NCBI GenBank assembly: GCA_965285935.1
Contig: OZ260662.1
Coordinates: 37,882,001 to 37,946,000, forward strand
DNA: 64,000 nt
Source of the DNA: Ophelia neglecta
Taxonomy: Eukaryota
Direction of reading: 5' to 3'
Part shown: one piece after another, positions 21,114 to 56,003 of the stretch
How positions within the stretch are numbered: the stretch's first letter is position 1
How the letters are laid out: each line of letters opens with the position of its first letter
The notes under the pieces: model-generated
Database searches by the model: none
Seen by the model: the letters and a program-made list of their open reading frames with translations, nothing else
What the model was told of the DNA's origin: nothing
Position numbers and translations under genes: made by a program

Positions 21114-23609
21114 TTAAGCCTAATTACTATAGCGTCACGTTTGGCCTTACTACTGAGCCAGAGTGAAAATGGCATAAATCCGTATCCAGTAATTTTCCCT
21201 GAACATGAACTCGCTTCCAGTCGGCACTAAAAGCACCTTCTTTATTACCCTCATCATCGCCAAACAGGAGTCATCAGTCGGTTTGAGCCCCGCCTGCCAC
21301 TTCAAGTCACTTTTTAAGCACTGTTCAAATACATAAGACACGACACTCGCATACCAAAAGGGGCTATCTAGCAGTGATTAGCGGAAAAAAGCCTTTAAGC
21401 TTATGTTCGAAGAGCTATTTCTTTCAATTTTACCCCACCATACGGAATTTGTGAGAATGTAGATAAAAAGTGTAAGTAGATGGACCTGCCAGTATCACCG
21501 ATACTGTTCAAAGTATCATGCAAACTTTGTATGCAGAACTGGAAATCGGTGTCGAGAAGATTTTTCTATCATAAATCGTGTCCGAAGAGAGTTGTATAAA
21601 TGAAGCATAGTCTTGCCAGCCTCTCCGGCATAACTCAAATCACCAAGAAGTATGAATATGTGTCTACTTGTGCAACTGTCAATGACCTCGTCTATCGCGC
21701 AATAGTACAGCATGCAGCATTAACAATGGCTCGAGCCGCACAATAACGCAGAAACTCTATAATGTAGATAGAATCGACAAGCGCTTCCCTTCTTCTCAAA
21801 TCCAAAAACTGCGATGCATATAAGCTTAGTAGGTTATCAATGGGTTCATTCATGTTAACAGGCATTCGAATATGTCAGATATTTGCTGACGACATGAACT
21901 CTTACTATACATAAGAAGGTTATATTTTCGACATAATCCTACACCGGTTTTACTTCTAATTATATATAGAAACGCGTCTGATATACTTCCTTCAGATTCA
22001 ATGTTTTGAAGCTAGAATTATTAGCTCAGCATGTGTATCAATTTTGTTTGTCCTCAAAAAATGTTAAAATGACAATGATTGAAAATCAAAAGATAAAATT
22101 GATATCGATTGTCATTTGCAAAGTTTCTTGATAGGCAATCATGAGGAAAATTGATTTCTGTGAACCAAACCTAATCAATGAAAAGGCCTCATCAGTGATA
22201 AACGAGTTCACTGATTGGCCAATCAAGGAAATGCTATCCGTAGATATGCGGTGTTAAGCTGGAGGAGCATTTCCGGTCGCCATTTTGAGCATGGTAATGC
22301 TGCCAGCGTGGTTCCAGTTAAGGTCATTAGGGCTCTGAAATAGACGAAGCCAGTCCAACAAAATACTAAATATCAAAATGATGCATTGATTTCTGTTCCT
22401 TCTTCGTGGATGAGGAATTGGGAAAGATTCATTATCTTAGGTTGAGCCAACAACCCTGATTGATGGGGTTGGCTTTAAAAATAAATAAAATTTGTTTATT
22501 ATGTTGATCTTACGCGCTCGGCGCCTTTCCAATGACATATATGTAGACTGAAAGCAGAAAAATATGTTGTTTATTCATTTATGAATTGTATAAGCCTTAT
22601 TGAATAGGGCAAACCATCAAAACGTATTCAACACAACCGACTCTTTATTTCCTCAATTAATCCCTTGTGCAAACGCCACAGAGGAATTAGCGCATGAATG
22701 GTAACACAATGAAAAACTTGTTTCCGTGGGCACATTCTTCCATCGATCGAACAGTCGAGAGAAGATACTGGCCCAGTCATCAAATCGCAGTTTCATAGCG
22801 GTACTAAGCACCTTAGTGTCATCACCAACATGCCCCAGTGCCACTTTAAAAGCGAGACAAAATGCCTCAAAGGCAACGCTGATTGTAGAGTATTGGCAGA
22901 TGGTATCAAGTTCCAAACAGGCTTTTCGAATGAATATTTTTGCAAACCAAATCTTGTATTGCATAGATTGTGACATGCGATGATTCCAATGCCTTCCTAG
23001 GACCCGGTACTGGACGTGTTTATGTTATTGTCGTCTAGTGAAGATTTGTCTTTATCACGTAATTCTAGATTACATTATTTTGCACAAGGGACACTTGAGG
23101 CAAATAAACAGACGAGACCACAAACCTATAATTATATTGCTTATATAATAGATCTGATTCCCCTGATCGATGGACAAATGAAAAAGCTTTCAGAGTTGAT
23201 CCCGTCGAGGTACTCTATACGTATGCTGGTATGTGGTGAGACAACCTCCAGGTTGGCTGAGCAGACGGCTCTTTTGAATTGCAAGCTAGTCAAACAACAG
23301 CACGTGTCTCAGAATACTTGAGTGACAGTCAGTAGACCAATGGCAAGACATTACTGTCTTTTCTGCGTTATTTCGATGCAGTCTTTGTCGTAATGGACAG
23401 TGGAAGCCTTCATGGACAATAGTCTCTTTTGATGATCCTTCGTACATTTAAATGGTGTTACCTTTACGTCAGTGAGTCTTCTGAAGAGAACAGAGCCATA
23501 AAATAAACTTCATGGTAGGCTTTTGTCTCATAAGTTCCCTTTATGAGAATACAGTTATTGAGCACGAAGACATTTTTGGAAATAACCTGTGTCTCCGTAA
23601 TAATACTTT

Positions 23610-24243
23610 CTGCACGTTAGCTCGGCCCCTGCACGTTACCTAAGCCCTTTCACGTTAGCTCGGCCTCTGCACGTTACCTAAGCCCTTTCACGTTAGCTCG
23701 GCCCCTGCACGTTACCTAAGCCCTTTCACGTTAGCTCGGCCTCTGCACGTTAACCTTTCCCCTGCACGTTAGATCCACCACTGGATGTTAGCTCCGTCCC
23801 GGCACGTTACCTAAGTCCCTTCAAGTTAGCTCGGCCCCTGCACGTTAGCTCGGCCCCTTGACGTTATAGTTCCGCCCGTGCACTTTGGTTCCGCCCCTGC
23901 ACGTTACCTCAGCCCCTGCACGTTAGCTCGGCCTCTGCACGATAGCTCTTCCCCCGTACGTTATATCCGCCCCTGCACGTTAGATCCGCCCCTGCACGTT
24001 AGATCCACCCCTTCACTATAGCTCCGCCCCTGCACCTTAGCTTGGCCTCTGCACGCTATCTCTTCCCCGCACGTTACCTCAGCCCCTGCACGATAATTCT
24101 TCCCCCGCACGTTAGATCCGCCCCTGCACGTTAGATCCACCCCTTCACTATAGCTCCGCCCCTGCACCTTAGCTCGGCCTCTGCACGGTATCTCTTCCCC
24201 GCTCGTTACCTCAGCCCCTGCACGTTAGCTCCGCCCCTGCACG
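23610..24243. repeat. ~19-bp minisatellite (consensus CCCCTGCACGTTAGCTC(G/C)G), ~33 units, with higher-order structure
   Basis: Tandem units are seen directly, with a 38-bp dimer early in the array and a ~132-bp seven-unit block duplicated at ~23975 and ~24107. Confidence 0.95.
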
Positions 24244-46530: not shown

Positions 46531-46676
46531 GTGTTTGACCGTGTATTATCCCTGTCTAGATTATTGCAATAGTTTCCCGGCGAGGTATCTATTACCGTAT
46601 TTAAAACGACCGTCAGTATTTCGTAATCGCTTCCTGTTACAGTTTCTGTTAAAAAGGCGGCTTGAAGTTTCAGTTA

Positions 46677-47085
46677 TGCGACGGTTGTGGTTACACAACC
46701 GTGTTTTTCGCAGGGAAACAATAAGCACACATATACAGCATACGTGTTTTCTTAACCATTCTCCTCGTTTCATGTGTCGCGGCTGATTGCACTTCACTGC
46801 GGATGCCGAGGATAGCCTCGACCGCTAACCACACCTGATAGCCCTGAACCAAAAGACACCTGCACCACGTGACACACTCGGCCAATCGCGTGTCAGATCG
46901 CACAGGGAGCCAGTTTCCGGACTATTTTGAACTAAACTATCCTTCTCATCCCGACTTCGACCTGGAAAGACGTCTAGACTTCTCTCTCCGGAAACCTGCC
47001 TTCGATCGACATTTATTCTAATTTACTTACCTTTCGGACCTTTGTTTCAAAATCTATCTTTCGCTTATATCTGATTTTTTCTTTC
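46677..47085 (+). repeat. Split direct repeat A1 (409 bp)
   Basis: Matches 53165-53573 at offset 6488 with no mismatch found by eye. The ORF track gives the same 70-aa antisense ORF in both copies. Confidence 0.97.
46866..46915 (+). promoter_or_regulatory. Candidate Pol II promoter motifs in repeat A (E-box CACGTG 46866, CCAAT 46882, Inr-like CAGTT 46911); duplicated in A2
   Basis: The motifs are seen directly. A promoter role is inferred from their position in the 5' repeat. Confidence 0.35.
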
Positions 47086-47169
47086 TTTCTGGAGAGCCTT
47101 ATTTGTTTGGACAACCTAGATTCACCTCAGTTCAGGTACGTTCATAGTACGCTACTATACCATTTCATA

Positions 47170-47802
47170 ATGGCGAGTACCGGGTTCGTTTTCGGCCACA
47201 GTTTTGTGTCAGGTTTAAACCACCACCTCACTGGGTCTCGGGATGAGTTCAATCCCCAGTCTGTAGCACAGAAACTACGCCTTGATAAGGTCACCAAGAA
47301 TCTTTTCTTGTGTGGCGATCGAGGCGCAAAAGTTTTAGATTCAAATTGGTTACCGCCGGTCCGCCATCTTGAATTTTTCCAACCGGCATTTGCCATATTA
47401 GATATTGGTTCTAATGATCTCGCTTCTGGCGCAGAACCCCTCACTGTAGCTGTTCGGTTAGTAGATTTAGCTAAGGAGCTAAACACGTTGTTTGCCATCA
47501 ATCAGGTCACCATTTGCTCGATTTTACCCAGATCAGCTGGTTTGCCTGCACACTCACCTGAAAGTTTCTTAAACTCTATTTCGGCATGTAACAAACACAT
47601 TTTTCAACTGTGCAGCGTTGAAGCGCATGTACAATTCTGGCCCCATAAAGGTTTTTGGAATCGAGCCATAGATGAATGGTCTCTGGATGGCATTCATCCT
47701 AATTCTGATCTTGGCAGGACTTTATACAAAAAATCCTTGCGAGAAATCATTTTCAAAACTGTGCAGGCACACCACGCTTTCCCCCCCTCACATGAAGCTT
47801 AA
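47170..47802 (+). CDS. SGNH/GDSL-family hydrolase (esterase/lipase-like), element-encoded, about 210 aa
   Basis: Block I FVFGHSFV (catalytic Ser), block II GDRGA, block III DIGSNDL and block V DGIHPN (DxxH) are all present. The likely start is the ATG at 47170 (ataATGG context); the track start at 47107 is TTG. Confidence 0.9.
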   Translation: MASTGFVFGHSFVSGLNHHLTGSRDEFNPQSVAQKLRLDKVTKNLFLCGDRGAKVLDSNWLPPVRHLEFFQPAFAILDIGSNDLASGAEPLTVAVRLVDLAKELNTLFAINQVTICSILPRSAGLPAHSPESFLNSISACNKHIFQLCSVEAHVQFWPHKGFWNRAIDEWSLDGIHPNSDLGRTLYKKSLREIIFKTVQAHHAFPPSHEA

Positions 47803-47941
47803 TCTTAGCAGGCCTACCCCACTGACAACGCGTCGTGGGGAAAGCCCGCTACCCACCTTAACCCCCCCCCCCCCTCTCACACAACCGTCCATGGCCTCCT
47901 GTCTTTACACATAACCTATTTGAATGCACATGTTTCATCTA

Positions 47942-48659
47942 GGAGAGTCGGCTTCGGCCTCCAATTCTTGCTACCATGGGGACCGGCTTCGGCCCCGCGC
48001 TGCCATTGATACCATTTTGTTCTTATTGAACTTACTTGTTGTATTAAATTCCCTTCGAATATATTGACCCCAAACTAATTTTGCTTCCTTCAAAAATTTT
48101 GTTTCACCTGGCTTCTGACTTCCAGACTTTATAACATAAGCCGCCCTTTAAAATTCGAAATTCAATTTATAGCTTTGGGGACCGGCTTCGGCCCCAAGCT
48201 GCAGGTGCTAACCTTCATTTTACTGTTTGCCGGCCACGGCATATGTCACTTATCTCATGTTGGGGACCGGCTTCGGCCCCAACCTGCTTATTACCTTACA
48301 TTTTACAATTTGCCGGCTTCGGCATATGTTGGGACCGGCTTCGGCCCTGCCTGCAGTTGTCAACTTACACTTTACAGTTTGCCGGCTTCGGCATATGTCA
48401 CTTATCTCATGTTGGGGACCGGCTTCGGCCCCAACCTACTGTTGTCACCTTACATTTTACAATTTGCCGGCTTCGGCATATGTTGGGGGACCGGCTTCGG
48501 CCCCTACCTGCAGTTGTAAACTTACATTTTACAGTTTGCCGGCTTCGGCATACGTCACTTACCTCATGTTGGGGACCGGCTTCGGCCCCAACCTGCTGTT
48601 GTTACCTTACATTTTACTATTTGCCGGCTTCGGCATATGTTGGGACCGGCTTCGGCCCC
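47942..48659 (+). repeat. Array of about 15 CCG-GCTT-CGG-type hairpins; tandem units of ~85 and ~70 bp forming ~155-bp higher-order repeats (core 48177-48659)
   Basis: G-type hairpins G(3-5)-A-CCG-GCTT-CGG-C(3-4) at 47978, 48177, 48262, 48331, 48414, 48485, 48571 and 48642. T-type TGCCG-GCTT-CGGCA at 48228 (loop variant), 48311, 48380, 48465, 48537 and 48622. One variant copy at 47942. Confidence 0.95.
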
Positions 48660-48853
48660 ATCATCCCATACTGACCTAAATTTGATCAATTCATTAGTAC
48701 TACTTGGACATTCTCTGATTAACTGTTACTTAACATCCTGTGTCTACTCGACACACCCCTATGTGAAATACTACCCACACGTATTCTAGTTATGGCAGCT
48801 TCGCTGCGCCTTACAATTGTACTATTTTCTGCTGCTCTTTCCTTCTTACAGCC

Positions 48854-50254
48854 ATGCCTAAGGTTACACAAAAATCTTCCCGGCCCTCCGGATCCCTCTC
48901 CATGAAGTTGAAGGCACGAAGGAGATCCATGACCCCCTCCACAACTGAATCACCCCTCAGGAAAACCCGCACAAGACCCATATCAAAACCAGCACTTCCA
49001 ACCCAAAGACAGCAGCCGCTAAGAAAAAGAAGATTGCCAGCACGACTGGTGAATTCCTTTGAAACCCCTTCACTGTTAAGCGAGTCTGACCCACAGCCAA
49101 GCACTTCCACACAACCAGATCAACAACCAGCAGACATCACCCTACACACCATGGCAAATATGCAGCAAAGCATCATTGCTGGCCAACAACTTCTCAGTAG
49201 GCAGATGGAAACACTGATAGCTGTCCTAACCGCAAAACACAGGGAACCAGATACCCCTCAGCAGATCCTCCAAACAGAAAACCTCCAAGCGGGCAGCCCC
49301 GAATCCCCTCAAAATCTAGACACTGTCATTGATGCTCATGCTGCAACCTTAGATCAACAACATCCTTGCCTACCCCAGCCTGATCCTTACCAGACAGCTT
49401 ACCATCCGCAATCACAGCCAGGCTTCATGCAGCAGCCCCAGCCACCGGTCATGCCACCATCACAGCCCACTGACACCAGTCAGAATCAACACTCAGGAAA
49501 TTTCAACGGTGAGTTTCTAAATGTTCCCATAGTCGTTAACAACCAGCGTCCATCCACTTCATCTGGACTCCCTCTTGGAGCATGTGTGGACATGCAGATT
49601 AAGCAAAAAATTTGGGCCCATAAATATGTTGATCTTGCAGATATTCTCTATCCAAATCAGTCTCAATCTTACTCACTCCAATTCTCCGACCCAAGTTCTA
49701 CCCCCCAACTTAACCTCAATCCTCGTAGGAAAAAGCAGCTCACAGAAAATGAATGGAGTTCTGCAATGGACATTTATGTAGCTATATATGTGCAAAAATA
49801 CCCTTCCCACCTCAGTGACCTGCTTACATACTGCCATCACATCAAGCAGTTGATGCGTCGCGGAGCTGAATGGCGATATTATGATCATGAGTTTCGCACC
49901 CAGAGAGAGCACGCAGAAGTGCCATATTCTTGGGCAACTGTGCGACAAGACTTACAGCTAGATGCATATTTCCCCCTCCAACAATCCTCTCGGCCGCCAA
50001 ATTCTTTTCGTGCCCACCAAGAAAATCAAAAGGTCCCATCTGGCTATTGTTTCACCTTCCACCAAAGGGGGGTGCGATGCTTCAACAACCCATGCCCATA
50101 CAAGCACGAATGCCCTAGGTGCTCCAAACGCCACCCCATGTATTCCCAGTGTAGCTCTTTCACACTCACACGCCCTCAACAACCTCAGACCGCCCCCAAA
50201 CTCAAAGTTGCCAACCCCAGTACAATTAGGCGCCCTGGCCAAATATCTAAGTGA
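48854..50254 (+). CDS. gag: Gag-like ORF1 (466 aa) of the YR retrotransposon
   Basis: Basic and Q/P-rich N-terminal half. DIRS/Ngaro Gag-like core (IKQKIWAHKYVDLADIL...W...WRYYDHEFR...W) and a C-terminal Cys/His zinc-finger region CFTFHQRGVRCFNNPCPYKHECPRCSKRH. Confidence 0.9.
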   Translation: MPKVTQKSSRPSGSLSMKLKARRRSMTPSTTESPLRKTRTRPISKPALPTQRQQPLRKRRLPARLVNSFETPSLLSESDPQPSTSTQPDQQPADITLHTMANMQQSIIAGQQLLSRQMETLIAVLTAKHREPDTPQQILQTENLQAGSPESPQNLDTVIDAHAATLDQQHPCLPQPDPYQTAYHPQSQPGFMQQPQPPVMPPSQPTDTSQNQHSGNFNGEFLNVPIVVNNQRPSTSSGLPLGACVDMQIKQKIWAHKYVDLADILYPNQSQSYSLQFSDPSSTPQLNLNPRRKKQLTENEWSSAMDIYVAIYVQKYPSHLSDLLTYCHHIKQLMRRGAEWRYYDHEFRTQREHAEVPYSWATVRQDLQLDAYFPLQQSSRPPNSFRAHQENQKVPSGYCFTFHQRGVRCFNNPCPYKHECPRCSKRHPMYSQCSSFTLTRPQQPQTAPKLKVANPSTIRRPGQISK

Positions 50255-51782
50255 ATACGAACACGGAAAATACCTTCTTGATGGATTCAAATATGGTTTT
50301 GACATTAAATTTTCTGGCCCGGAAACCCCAACCCGATCAAAAAACTCTCAATCTGTATTAAAAAACCCTGAAATAGTACAAAGAAAGATAGAAAAAGAAA
50401 TAGCCCTTGGCAGAATTGCTGGCCCTTTTAAAAATCCACCCTTCCCCAATTTCAAATGTTCTCCATTAGCACTGAGAGAAAAACAATCTCCAGGCACATT
50501 TAGGCTCCTGCATAACCTGTCCTTTCCATATGATGAAACCTCTGTCAATAACAACATCCCTAGCGACTCCACGTCGGTTCAGTATGAAAGTATTAAAAAT
50601 GCAATATCACTCATTCAGCAGTGTTCACCAGGGGCCTTCATGGCAAAAAGTGACATAGCAGATGCTTTTCGGCTCATACCTATAAACCCTAAACAATATC
50701 ACCTAATGGGATTCCAATTTAAAGGGGAGTTCTATTACGACAAATGTCTGCCTATGGGGTGTGCATCATCTTGTAAAATTTTTGAAACTTTTTCAAATGC
50801 CCTGAAATGGATTTTGGCAAATAAATTTGATGTCCAAAACATTGTCAAAATACTTGACGACTTTCTTTTCGTGTCTCCACAACTCTCGACATGCCATAAG
50901 TACCTAAACATATTCCTAGCCCTATGTAAAGAGATTGGGGTCCCCATTGCCCCTCACAAAACACTAGGACCCTCCACTGCAGTAGTATTCATGGGAATAC
51001 ACCTAGACTCGATACAAATGACTGCTTCCCTTCCACCAGATAAACTAGCACGATATACGCAAGACATAAAAGATACTTTGGCACGCAAGAAATTAACTCT
51101 GAGAGAACTCAAATCATTGATAGGGAAATTACAATTTTCAACTTGCATAGTAACCTCAGGCAAACCATTTTTAAGACGCTTGCACGACCTTACCATTGGC
51201 CTTTCGAAACCGTTTTACTTTCTTCGCATCAGTCGAGGGGCAAGACAGGACCTCCAAACCTGGCTCAACTTCCTACAAAACTATAATGGAAAGTCCCTTA
51301 TGACAAAACCCTCTAACCTTGATTCGACCACAATACATCTCTTTTCCGATTCTTCCAAATTAGGCTTTGGAGCCACTTACAAAAACAATTGGATACAAGG
51401 GAAATGGCCCATCTCCTGGCAAACACTAAACATAGCCGTCCTGGAAATTTACCCCATACTTGCGATTATTGTAACATTTGCTAAACACCTAAGTCACTCA
51501 CACATAACATTCCACTGTGACAACCAAGCCGTTGTCGAAGTGATAAAAAAGCAGAGCTCAAAATGCCCCCGCATCATGGCCATCCTACGCCCACTCGTTC
51601 TTACCCTCCTCTTAAATAACATAACATTGCATCCCGTACATATACCAGGTATTGACAATGTTTTATGCGACAAAATTTCTCGATTCCAGGCGGACAAATA
51701 CACTCTTCTACAATATGGGATGAAGTCATCCCCCGTGTCGATCCCAGAGGAAATCCTTCCTCGCAACTACAACTTGGTTTAA
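49962..51782 (+). CDS. pol: Reverse transcriptase + RNase H (ORF2, 606 aa), overlapping gag and YR
   Basis: RT motifs FRLLHNLS, MAKSDIADAFRLIP, LPMGCASS and ILDDF. RNase H motifs FSDSS, IAVLEIYP, HCDNQAVV and HIPGIDNVLCDKISR. The true start is uncertain because conserved sequence begins near LPTPV (~50210). Confidence 0.96.
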   Translation: MHISPSNNPLGRQILFVPTKKIKRSHLAIVSPSTKGGCDASTTHAHTSTNALGAPNATPCIPSVALSHSHALNNLRPPPNSKLPTPVQLGALAKYLSEYEHGKYLLDGFKYGFDIKFSGPETPTRSKNSQSVLKNPEIVQRKIEKEIALGRIAGPFKNPPFPNFKCSPLALREKQSPGTFRLLHNLSFPYDETSVNNNIPSDSTSVQYESIKNAISLIQQCSPGAFMAKSDIADAFRLIPINPKQYHLMGFQFKGEFYYDKCLPMGCASSCKIFETFSNALKWILANKFDVQNIVKILDDFLFVSPQLSTCHKYLNIFLALCKEIGVPIAPHKTLGPSTAVVFMGIHLDSIQMTASLPPDKLARYTQDIKDTLARKKLTLRELKSLIGKLQFSTCIVTSGKPFLRRLHDLTIGLSKPFYFLRISRGARQDLQTWLNFLQNYNGKSLMTKPSNLDSTTIHLFSDSSKLGFGATYKNNWIQGKWPISWQTLNIAVLEIYPILAIIVTFAKHLSHSHITFHCDNQAVVEVIKKQSSKCPRIMAILRPLVLTLLLNNITLHPVHIPGIDNVLCDKISRFQADKYTLLQYGMKSSPVSIPEEILPRNYNLV

Positions 51783-52678
51783 ACAAACTTTTAAATGCCT
51801 CGATGGCCACAAGCACAAGCCGCGTTTACATTAGGCAATGGCAAGCCCTTTTATCTTTCATTACCCATGAATTACAACTGCCACCCACCCTCCCCGTGTC
51901 AGATTATACCTTAGCTTTATTTGTTACTCACCTCTTCCAACAGGGCCTTCGCCAGTCAACTATTCGAACATATATGTCGGCTATCTCCTTCGTTCACACC
52001 ATTAAAAAATTCCCAGACCCCACTAGTAGTGTTGTTGTTCGAAAAGCAATTGACGGGATCAAATCCCTGGAAAACTACGACTATGATAGCCACCAACTCC
52101 CAATCACAAAGTCAATATTGGAAAGACTTATCGATTCCATCCCTTTCTGCACAATGTCCCCTTATGATAGAACCATGTATAAAGCACTCTTTCTTATTAT
52201 GTACTATGCCTGCATGAGAGCATCCGAAGCTGTCCTGACCCAAACCCCTCAACACATGTTGCAACTTAATCAGGTTCAACCAAAAGGCAAAGACTTTCTC
52301 ATAACTTTTCGGTCTTTTAAACACTCGAAAAATCGCACAGCAACAGTTTTGTTACAAGCCTCAACTGAAAATCTATACTGCCCGTCTTATGCACTTCGTA
52401 ACTACCTCCTAAAAAGAGGACAACAAGACGGTGCGCTGTTCATAAACCAACATAAAATGCCCATTACAAGAAACACCTTTGCCATTTTCCTAAAACAATG
52501 CATGACTATGTCTGGAATTAATCCCGCACAATACAACACACATGGTTTCCGCATAGGCAGAGCCACACAAATGTCCTTACAAAATGAGAACGAACACACA
52601 ATAAAATCTGTCGGCCGATGGAGCAGTGACGCCTTCAAAACTTACATCAGACCCGCACATGTGCCTCTCCCACCCTAG
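51665..52678 (+). CDS. Tyrosine recombinase (ORF3, 337 aa)
   Basis: Catalytic set R (CMRASE), K (FKHSK), HxxR (HGFRIG), W (GRWSS) and Y (KTYIRP). The N-terminal core-binding region reads STIRTYMSAISFVH. Confidence 0.96.
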   Translation: MRQNFSIPGGQIHSSTIWDEVIPRVDPRGNPSSQLQLGLNKLLNASMATSTSRVYIRQWQALLSFITHELQLPPTLPVSDYTLALFVTHLFQQGLRQSTIRTYMSAISFVHTIKKFPDPTSSVVVRKAIDGIKSLENYDYDSHQLPITKSILERLIDSIPFCTMSPYDRTMYKALFLIMYYACMRASEAVLTQTPQHMLQLNQVQPKGKDFLITFRSFKHSKNRTATVLLQASTENLYCPSYALRNYLLKRGQQDGALFINQHKMPITRNTFAIFLKQCMTMSGINPAQYNTHGFRIGRATQMSLQNENEHTIKSVGRWSSDAFKTYIRPAHVPLPP

Positions 52679-52850
52679 AGCGCCCCGCACCTCAGCTAGT
52701 TTAATTGGGGTGACCAGCGTATGCTGCCCCCAGGCAGGGTTCTCTCCCGGGAAGACCAGCGTATGCTGCTCCCAACACATCCCCTTTATTCGCTCTATAT
52801 TTGTGGGATCCCGCTCAGTGTGCTACAAACGCCTGCACCCCTCGCTTATG

Positions 52851-53164
52851 GCGACCTTGCAGGGTATCCCACATTGTACATATTGATGCCTACTCTGTAT
52901 ATATGTTCATGTCGCTTCGTTAGTCATTATTGTACATACGTTAATAGTTATACTTAACTTTAACTAAGTCATATTTTGTAATCATATTTCGGTGTATGTA
53001 ATGACCAAATTATTCTACTATTGTTATTCGATTTCAACAACGTGTTTTCTAATTTCCTGTGATTATAATATTCAGAACTCTTTACCAATTCATAATTATC
53101 AAAATATTTAATAAATTTAATTAAACTCCTATGTGCCTTGTGTTATTGCTTTCCTAAAGAAAAA
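52851..53164 (+). repeat. Split direct repeat B1 (314 bp)
   Basis: Runs GCGACCTTGCAGGG...TTCCTAAAGAAAAA, matches 53624-53937 at offset 773, and directly abuts A2. Confidence 0.96.
53110..53152 (+). terminator. Candidate polyadenylation signal in repeat B (AATAAA 53110-53115 plus a GU-rich downstream element); copy at 53883-53888
   Basis: AATAAA is followed ~16 nt later by TGTGCCTTGTGTTATTGCTTT. Confidence 0.55.
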
Positions 53165-53573
53165 TGCGACGGTTGTGGTTACACAACCGTGTTTTTCGCA
53201 GGGAAACAATAAGCACACATATACAGCATACGTGTTTTCTTAACCATTCTCCTCGTTTCATGTGTCGCGGCTGATTGCACTTCACTGCGGATGCCGAGGA
53301 TAGCCTCGACCGCTAACCACACCTGATAGCCCTGAACCAAAAGACACCTGCACCACGTGACACACTCGGCCAATCGCGTGTCAGATCGCACAGGGAGCCA
53401 GTTTCCGGACTATTTTGAACTAAACTATCCTTCTCATCCCGACTTCGACCTGGAAAGACGTCTAGACTTCTCTCTCCGGAAACCTGCCTTCGATCGACAT
53501 TTATTCTAATTTACTTACCTTTCGGACCTTTGTTTCAAAATCTATCTTTCGCTTATATCTGATTTTTTCTTTC
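53165..53573 (+). repeat. Split direct repeat A2
   Basis: Copy of A1. Confidence 0.97.
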
Positions 53574-53623
53574 CCTCCCATCCCACCCGATTGTACATTT
53601 TGATGCCTACTCTGTATATATGT

Positions 53624-53937
53624 GCGACCTTGCAGGGTATCCCACATTGTACATATTGATGCCTACTCTGTATATATGTTCATGTCGCTTCGTTAGTCAT
53701 TATTGTACATACGTTAATAGTTATACTTAACTTTAACTAAGTCATATTTTGTAATCATATTTCGGTGTATGTAATGACCAAATTATTCTACTATTGTTAT
53801 TCGATTTCAACAACGTGTTTTCTAATTTCCTGTGATTATAATATTCAGAACTCTTTACCAATTCATAATTATCAAAATATTTAATAAATTTAATTAAACT
53901 CCTATGTGCCTTGTGTTATTGCTTTCCTAAAGAAAAA
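53624..53937 (+). repeat. Split direct repeat B2 (element 3' end)
   Basis: Copy of B1. Identity stops after AAGAAAAA at 53937. Confidence 0.96.
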
Positions 53938-56003
53938 CCATATCCCTATAAACTCATCCCCTCACTCTATACAAGTTATCAATACCAATATTTAATGCAG
54001 ATAAATGGATATTCCAGTAATTGAATTTTCAGATATGTGCACATATACGCAGTCCTATATATGGTTCGGTATTGATTCCCCTGATTGTATTGTGTCAATT
54101 AAAAACTAATCATTTCAAGTGCAATGGATTTGCATTCGTTTTTGCAGGATTTTTTTTAGAAACATTCTTGGCCTGTTGCGAGATCTTTGTTTGAGGTTTC
54201 CTATCGACTGAAGATAATATAAACTCATAAATGTTGCTCCCATCGGTAGTCATTCATCATTTAAAAACTATCTGACGTCCAACAGATGACTCCCCATACT
54301 TCCTCTATCAGATAACCTCCGATCGATCAACAGTGCCTACTAAGTTAGGAAAAACGAGAGATAAAACTTCCGGTTCATCTTATCATGTTTCATTGTTAAG
54401 GTTGAAAATGAGTGTGAGCCTCATTGAAAGGCGGGCGACGAAAGGTGTAGTACATCGTCAGTGCAATTTAGTGAGTATCTCATTTAGGAACACCAGAAAC
54501 ACAGTATTTTTTGTTTACCTGGAAAGGATAAAATACCCTGTTATTCTATAACTATGACAGTGACTTATGCAATACTAGTTTCCTTGTAACAGTCTAGGGT
54601 CGCACCATCAGGTGACTGGTGTTGGTGGTTGTGGATGGGTGTGTGGGTGTGATGGTGGTTATGCTAAAATATGACTTTGTTTAAATAATCAGAAACATGC
54701 TCTTTTGTGCCACTATTGTTTTCGACGTTCTTTCTTTTACTAACTGTGGAATTTTTTTTCTACAAAATGTGACTTTAGCTATGTGGACCCTCCTCTCCAC
54801 CCTTCCAATTATCAACATGAAAGGATTCGCCATCGTTGAAGTGGCATCATTTGTAACAAAGAATTTTCAAGTCTGGTTGTGTTGTGCCCGTGAAAGGTTA
54901 ATTGGCTTGTTAAACGAAACAGTTAAAAAAAATGATCCCCTTTTCAAAGGCCAGTAGAAGACGCATTGACCCTAAACAAATCGGTATCATTATATATAAG
55001 CTCAAGGCAATAAGAAGTTAAAGGTGTTAAGTGTCGACCAGCAAGATATTATTGTGCTGCAACTCCTCAAAATACAGCAAAATCATATCTGAACAAGTCT
55101 GCCAGCTCAAAATAAAAAGAATCTCCACACTTGATAAATTAACAGAAATTTCCCGATAGAGTTTGAAAGGAGATAACTGAATTGACGGTGAAACATCCCT
55201 GATGACCCATAAAAGCTCCCCTCGGGTGGGTAAATGCCTTCCAATTTGAGCATAAATATGGTTCTGCTTTGAATGACAGATGTGTCTCGGGAACGGCATG
55301 AAGTTGTTAACACACCCTGAAATAATGTGCCTCGTGAGACAGATTTGACATGTCCAATGGTGCCAAATGGAATTGGCTAGGAAACAAAAAAAGACTAGAA
55401 AATAATGATTATATTCTCCACACAATATATATTCGATCAGCTGTTATGTATTACTGTGTGTTCTAAAGAAAATTCTTGATATTTACAATAAACGGTTAAA
55501 ATCAATGTTAGCAATGTCCAATCTCTGATGCTCAATTGTAACACACTAACCACACATTTGTTACAATTTCTAGCTTTTTCGATACTGCCTTCATAAATCG
55601 TTCACTTAACATAGTGAGACTGTATTGCACGATTGAAGAGGTACAATTCAATCTCCATCCTTAGTTTGCGTGGACTTTTCACTTCCTTATCTGGCCTTAT
55701 CTTTTTTTTTTCGATCTATTCATCCGTAGTTTTAAGAGAAAGCTTGGTTGTCCTAGGACACAAGCCATCTCTTTCCTACGTCAACCACTGTTTCGTTTGT
55801 TTGGTGATACACTGGATCAATTTAATAAACTATTATTGAGGTTTGAGTTGTCTAGTTTCCCCGAGTATCCCTTCCCGCCTTTTTGTCGACTGTTCTTACC
55901 TCCGTTTACTCAACAAATACAGGTAACTCTTCAAAATAGTTGATATGCGTTGACAACAAATGAAGTATTTGGTATATTGTCGTTTCCTTAATCGTATATC
56001 AAT

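Follow-up and report, generated by a model that had tools for sequence, protein, structure and literature searches.

The tyrosine recombinase (YR) of a retrotransposon in the window, i.e., the whole 64,000-nt stretch of Ophelia neglecta DNA analysed, is very likely made from a spliced mRNA. Removal of a putative phase-1 intron of 2181 nt (intron 2, 49509..51689) would join the N-terminal part of Gag to the recombinase in a GagN-YR product of 547 aa. This reading had been put forward in an earlier note from the sequence alone. It was supported by splice sites conserved in phase among relatives and by public gene models with the same architecture, whereas no conserved signal was found for an own start codon of YR or for a -1 frameshift. 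As judged from sequence comparison, the feature is real and is conserved within an element family already known. All coordinates are window positions on the + strand unless stated.

By its layout and domain content, the element is an intact Ngaro-type YR retrotransposon, and it matches the layout that passages of PMC8547959 and bioRxiv 2021.08.05.455354 describe for Ngaro. The repeats stand in the order A1 ... B1 A2 B2, i.e., the split direct repeats by which Ngaro elements are recognized. A1 (46676..47085, 410 bp) forms the 5' end and is 100% identical to A2 (53164..53573, 410 bp). B1 (52847..53164, 319 bp, with AATAAA at 53110) is 99.7% identical to B2 (53619..53937), which forms the 3' end. 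The spacer between A2 and B2 (53574-53623) has 45 nt, 34 of which nearly repeat part of B. The gag ORF (48854..50254, 466 aa) encodes a basic disordered N-half, a helical core from about residue 241 and a CCCH/CCHC-type zinc-finger tail. The pol ORF (49962..51782) lies in the +1 frame relative to gag and encodes RT (PF00078, E 1.9e-11) and RNase H, with the motifs ILDDF and D-E-D-D intact. The recombinase exon (51690..52678; PF00589, E 5.8e-11) is in the gag frame, and its stop-to-stop ORF starts at 51656. Gag, RT/RNase H and a YR with its catalytic residues are thus all present, as in Ngaro; the catalytic R, K, H-x-x-R, W and Y were invariant across the YR alignment. Since these residues are intact, the element looks recently active.

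Other features are also shared with Ngaro, i.e., the overlap of YR, in the -1 frame, with pol, an additional SGNH hydrolase ORF, which is optional in Ngaro and is placed 5' of gag here, and the absence of a methyltransferase. Pfam found only RT and RNase H in pol, which ends 30 residues past the SRFQ motif. PAT-like and DIRS1-like elements resemble the element in using YR as integrase and in their overlapping ORFs, and PAT also shares the split direct repeats. However, passages of PMC7192593 and PMC4157794 describe a methyltransferase encoded after RNase H in both groups, whereas pol in the window ends about 30 residues past RNase H. A PAT-like identity was rejected on the lack of a methyltransferase despite the split direct repeats. 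A DIRS1-like identity was rejected as well, because DIRS1 has inverted terminal repeats and an internal complementary region, and the element has direct repeats alone at its ends. The search of 46600-54000 against Rfam gave no match.

The coding exon predicted to be common to Gag and GagN-YR (48854..49508) comprises 218 codons and 1 nt. It ends at the donor AACG|GTGAGT at 49508/49509, which is 655 nt past the gag ATG at 48854. The acceptor ...TTTCTCGATTCCAG|G (TTCCAG|G) at 51689/51690 is in phase 1 of the YR frame. Both sites were therefore confirmed where the earlier note had placed them, and its arithmetic, the 1/1 phase match and the joined ORF of 547 aa were correct. Lost with the intron would be the Gag core, the zinc fingers and RT, together with almost the whole of RNase H. 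The donor had also been said to lie at the border between the low-complexity N-half of Gag and its core, which agrees with the AlphaFold model, where residue 219 is disordered and stands about 22 residues before the folded core.

Splice sites were scored with frequency matrices of rounded values. The donor at 49509 is the sole GTRAG on the + strand of 46600-54000, and with a score of 9.4 it is the second-best donor of the element after 47136 (9.8). The acceptor at 51689 is middling, i.e., score 6.3 and 14th among 294 AGs, with a modest pyrimidine tract. GT...AG ends, a consensus donor and a YAG are present, and upstream of the acceptor only weak branch-point matches were found (TTGAC at 51652), without clear consensus. 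Synonymous recoding of the window element alone gave P = 0.035 for the donor and 0.024 for the acceptor. Taken alone, the element's own two sites are suggestive; it is their conservation in relatives that lifts the observation above chance. The chance of a phase match is higher than the one in three assumed in the earlier note: control tiles were taken from Gag core, RT and YR, and of these 262, 110 had their best donor in phase 1 and 33 had a best donor scoring at least 7.3. The 49508-to-51690 joint was absent from the contigs of three DNA runs of one sample, and such DNA contigs show presence only. In one DNA contig of a related family, the alignment begins at 49505, i.e., at the donor.

Relatives were collected as 25 loci through an RT alignment, i.e., 20 metagenome contigs and five genome contigs filed under bacterial bins. 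The latter (L021-L025) carry retrotransposons and were taken to be eukaryotic DNA, probably host contamination. Viral contigs were also searched, and no relatives were found in them. The YRs of the relatives are 25-39% identical to that of the window, and gag and YR share one frame in all eight loci that hold both in order.

Sixteen relatives have a gag match that covers the KY[VI]D anchor, and in 15 of them the best GT upstream of the Gag core was in phase 1. Where at least 50 ungapped codons lie upstream, the donor was both strong (7.3-10.7) and in phase 1 in all 14 relatives, placed 24-68 codons before the anchor, although the half of Gag that carries it cannot be aligned among the relatives. 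The one miss, L023, has a phase-0 site and a 100-N gap at the expected donor place. In L020, whose gag match is truncated, the donor site is weak.

At the end of RNase H, the best AG was in phase 1 of YR in all 13 relatives with both an RNase H end and a YR. This set includes L017, which has a one-base shift in pol; L006, without a YR, and L025, which is divergent and broken with no CAG at SRxx, were left out. The acceptor falls on SRxQ in seven of the 13, with CAG as the glutamine codon in all seven, and CAG makes up 203 of the 391 Gln codons in the RTs of relatives. In the other six, this glutamine is missing, and a CAG preceded by a pyrimidine tract stands 2, 3 or 7 codons downstream. Intron length was a multiple of three in seven of eight relatives with both sites. 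Among 120 RT relatives, for which only protein was available, Gln occupied the acceptor place in 99, and the following residue was V, A, E or D, i.e., encoded by a codon starting with G, in 100. Conservation in phase, which the earlier note had proposed as a check, was thus found for both sites, i.e., a phase-1 mid-gag donor in 14/14 and a phase-1 CAG acceptor at or just past SRxQ in 13/13.

Protein constraint raises the null expectation, since both sites are placed within coding sequence, and the probability of phase 1 ranged from 0.16 to 0.91 per locus. The null was built by protein-preserving recoding, with the one least favourable member of each cluster of related loci and 10 lineages per site. 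Fisher's combined p over the 10 lineages was 3.5e-5 for the donor and 4.1e-5 for the acceptor; these values are somewhat optimistic, since the windows of the test were chosen after the sites were known. Conservation in phase exceeded what protein constraint gives.

This result bears on a very unlikely alternative, in which YR starts at its own ATG on a subgenomic RNA or by reinitiation, and the two sites are by-products of the peptides G-E and SRFQ. Each splice site alone is marginal, and the window does have two in-frame ATGs; the earlier note gave them as 51665, which is right, and about 51802, where the true position is 51803. However, the recoding null retains these very peptides and was exceeded all the same. 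In the relatives, the first Met of YR lies 9-103 codons past the acceptor with no shared position, and in L003, L023 and L024 it lies at 80-103, within the core-binding region. The ATG at 51803 is inside a helix whose conservation reaches about 12 residues further upstream. With the spliced GagN-YR, the N-terminus common with Gag would supply the start codon.

Passages of PMC13003380 quote Poulter and Butler 2015 for the view that the Ngaro YR is probably expressed through a programmed frameshift in the overlap. A programmed -1 ribosomal shift from RT/RNase H would give a Pol-YR polyprotein, and the reading frames agree with it: pol at its end and YR, the latter in the -1 frame, have 88-220 nt in common in 13 of 13 intact overlaps (12 relatives and the window; L017 and L025 were left out as broken). 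RT pieces are also joined to YR in seven of the 26 long gene models described below, and the review quoted above calls the shift probable. Yet a canonical X_XXY_YYZ heptamer in the RT frame was present in none of the 13 overlaps, and relaxed matches were found in three, at differing positions. RNase H conservation continues about 30 residues beyond the acceptor, and a frameshift leaves the conserved gag donor and the whole-codon slide of the CAG unexplained. A -1 shift is thus regarded as highly improbable here, and splicing from the mid-gag donor is the reading preferred.

Public gene models showed the architecture of the predicted product. Profile searches gave 206 YR proteins, 26 of which have at least 90 aa before the YR profile. 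In 19 of the 26, this N-terminal part contains neither Gag core nor RT; the 19 come from 10 animal species of five phyla, i.e., the NCBI models of Procambarus, Antedon, two Branchiostoma, Argopecten, Pecten, two Saccostrea, Littorina and Nematostella. Of the other seven, five contain RT pieces and two contain Gag core and RT, and several use the same acceptor. Most of the models begin with MP and basic residues, as do the Gag proteins of the related loci. In seven models inspected by eye, the junction residue was G or D and stood 89-91 aa before a motif that lies 91 aa past the acceptor in the window. In Branchiostoma belcheri, P0211 has the N-terminus of P0217/P0299 as far as ...SNILG, after which P0211 continues into YR and P0217/P0299 into the Gag core. 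This is the sole species that shows directly that the N-terminus of a model is that of Gag. When a Gag partner was sought for the N-terminus of the oyster fusion, the sole match was a second fusion. Two RefSeq isoform pairs, P0208/P0295 and P0257/P0306, differ solely at the junction, by 4 and 6 residues; to our knowledge, an alternative isoform enters RefSeq only if transcripts align to it. As evidence, the models are only partly independent, because the predictors use the same splice signals as were scored here and seven of the 26 join RT to YR. In the YR tree of unnamed loci and gene models, the gene models interleaved with the related loci.

A further putative intron, intron 1 (47136..48851; CAG|GTACGT ... 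TTCCTTCTTACAG|), would end 2 nt before the gag ATG. Its donor (9.8) and acceptor (12.9) are the best of each kind in the element. L001 and L004 have a donor at the same place, 29-34 nt ahead of the hydrolase ATG, and an acceptor scoring at least 9 directly precedes the gag Met in eight of 11 relatives. The SGNH/GDSL hydrolase ORF (47170..47802) matched PF13472 at E 4e-7, slightly below the curated cut-off. As the ORF lies inside putative intron 1, splicing would decide between hydrolase and Gag as the product. By Pfam, hydrolases were also identified before gag in L004, between a YR and the next gag in L001, and 3' of YR in L023 and L024. The Ngaro hydrolase is described in a passage of bioRxiv 2021.08.05.455354 as following YR, whereas in the window it precedes gag inside a putative intron. 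Within intron 1, 47979-48691 holds eight copies of the hairpin-like unit GGGACCGGCTTCGGCCCC with cUUCGg loops, at steps of 67-199 nt. The unit had no Rfam match and was absent from the 25 related loci.

The strong donor of intron 1 raises the question of pairing. The acceptor at 51689 could be real and normally joined to 47136, the strongest donor of the element, or to another donor, giving a YR without the Gag N-terminus, and the gag exon could in principle be skipped. YR would then need an internal Met as its start, and that Met is not conserved. Most gene models, too, begin with an N-terminus of MP and basic residues. The mid-gag donor would also be left partnerless, since no phase-conserved acceptor exists near the start of pol. 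Such pairing is considered most improbable, and the pairing of 49509 with 51689 is retained.

The unspliced RNA would then serve as genome and, its first ATG being that of the hydrolase, as hydrolase mRNA. Removal of intron 1 would give the gag mRNA, and removal of both introns would give the mRNA of GagN-YR, i.e., the 218-aa Gag N-terminus followed by YR.

Pol would be reached from the gag mRNA through a +1 ribosomal shift at TTT_CGT, a route judged probable from the sequence pattern. The candidate site (50003..50012, TCT TTT CGT G) has TTT_CGT in the gag frame, 45 nt past the opening of the pol frame. In 16 of 18 elements, the linker that follows the Gag core has a TTT_C in the gag frame, 12 times as TTT CGN and in the other four carriers as TTT CA or TTT CT, mostly 12-75 nt past the opening of the +1 frame. 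In the linker, eight of nine lineages write Phe-Arg pairs as TTT CGN, compared with 23 of 78 for RT and YR (p 9e-4). That the +1 frame is open says little for a frameshift, with values of 0.14-0.85 under the recoded null. Two other routes to pol were weighed. Splicing from the mid-gag donor was rejected, as the best AGs near the pol start are spread over all three phases. Initiation at an own ATG was rejected because, in five of 18 elements, the stretch from where the pol frame opens to the RT match contains no Met. Neither a conserved ATG nor a phase-conserved acceptor for pol was found among the elements.

A UUU_CGN motif for +1 frameshifting is described for plant amalgaviruses in a passage of PMC5052127. 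The arrangement here is alike in that TTT CGN stands in the upstream frame shortly past the opening of the +1 frame. It differs in being placed in a retrotransposon gag/pol overlap and in the TTT CA or TTT CT of four of the 16 carriers. The amalgavirus motif is kin to that of influenza PA-X.

The Gag N-terminus carries 19 K/R within its first 65 aa. In the AlphaFold model, the N-half is disordered with one confident long helix at 95-128, and the core follows from about 241. By this predicted layout, the splice would retain the basic patch and the helix and cut just before the core. The common N-terminus probably gives either a nuclear signal through its basic clusters or a helix for co-assembly of YR with Gag. 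A putative role in taking the recombinase to the nucleus, as the earlier note suggested, is plausible. Fold searches with the Gag model gave nothing clear, with a best Z of 4.8 and no Foldseek hit at E<=0.001.

Spliced subgenomic mRNAs are known for retroviral env, foamy-virus pol, and the spliced gag of Drosophila copia and plant Ty1/copia. The predicted scheme is like these in having one genome-length RNA and spliced RNAs that set protein amounts. In those retroelements the splice yields Env, Pol or Gag, whereas here the product would be the integrating enzyme, separate from RT and carrying half of Gag. Passages of PMC13003380 give YR expression in Ngaro as probably by frameshift, whereas YR in the window has conserved splice signals that would join it to the Gag N-terminus. 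In the DIRS/Ngaro literature covered on splicing, introns and frameshifts, outside the main reviews and the Repbase annotations, no report of a spliced Gag-YR mRNA was found. It was likewise absent from the passages covered of PMC7192593, PMC9341512, PMC6681497, PMC8547959, PMC4157794, PMC3783388, PMC13003380, bioRxiv 2021.08.05.455354, PMC3266345, PMC2632668 and PMC4495291.

In the sources as covered, a frameshift is called the probable route to the overlapping third ORF in elements of the DIRS order. A conserved splice would replace the frameshift proposed for YR in review. The answer would be concrete, and RNA-seq already available for amphioxus, oysters, scallops, crayfish or Nematostella could be used to check it. 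The real recombinase would be redefined as a Gag fusion of 430-550 aa, which matters for biochemical and transposition assays. A set of RefSeq genes called uncharacterized would be explained as spliced products of retrotransposons. A retroelement would also be seen to keep internal introns through replication of its unspliced RNA alone.

At slightly less than even chance, the observations may be drawn together as a four-protein programme of animal Ngaro elements from cnidarians to chordates, run from one promoter. The unspliced RNA would give the hydrolase, a first splice Gag, a +1 shift at UUU_CG Gag-Pol, and a second splice GagN-YR, whose helix and basic patch would load YR into the particle and the nucleus. 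The spliced product would then be the recombinase rather than the polymerase, and the published frameshift would have been placed at the wrong junction.

Two minor observations were made in the window. Contigs of the three DNA runs of one sample hold, over 48700-52850, related families at 80-95% identity, and their differences in gag and YR show three-base spacing for a large part. A 19-nt minisatellite array, unconnected with the element, occupies 23568-24219.
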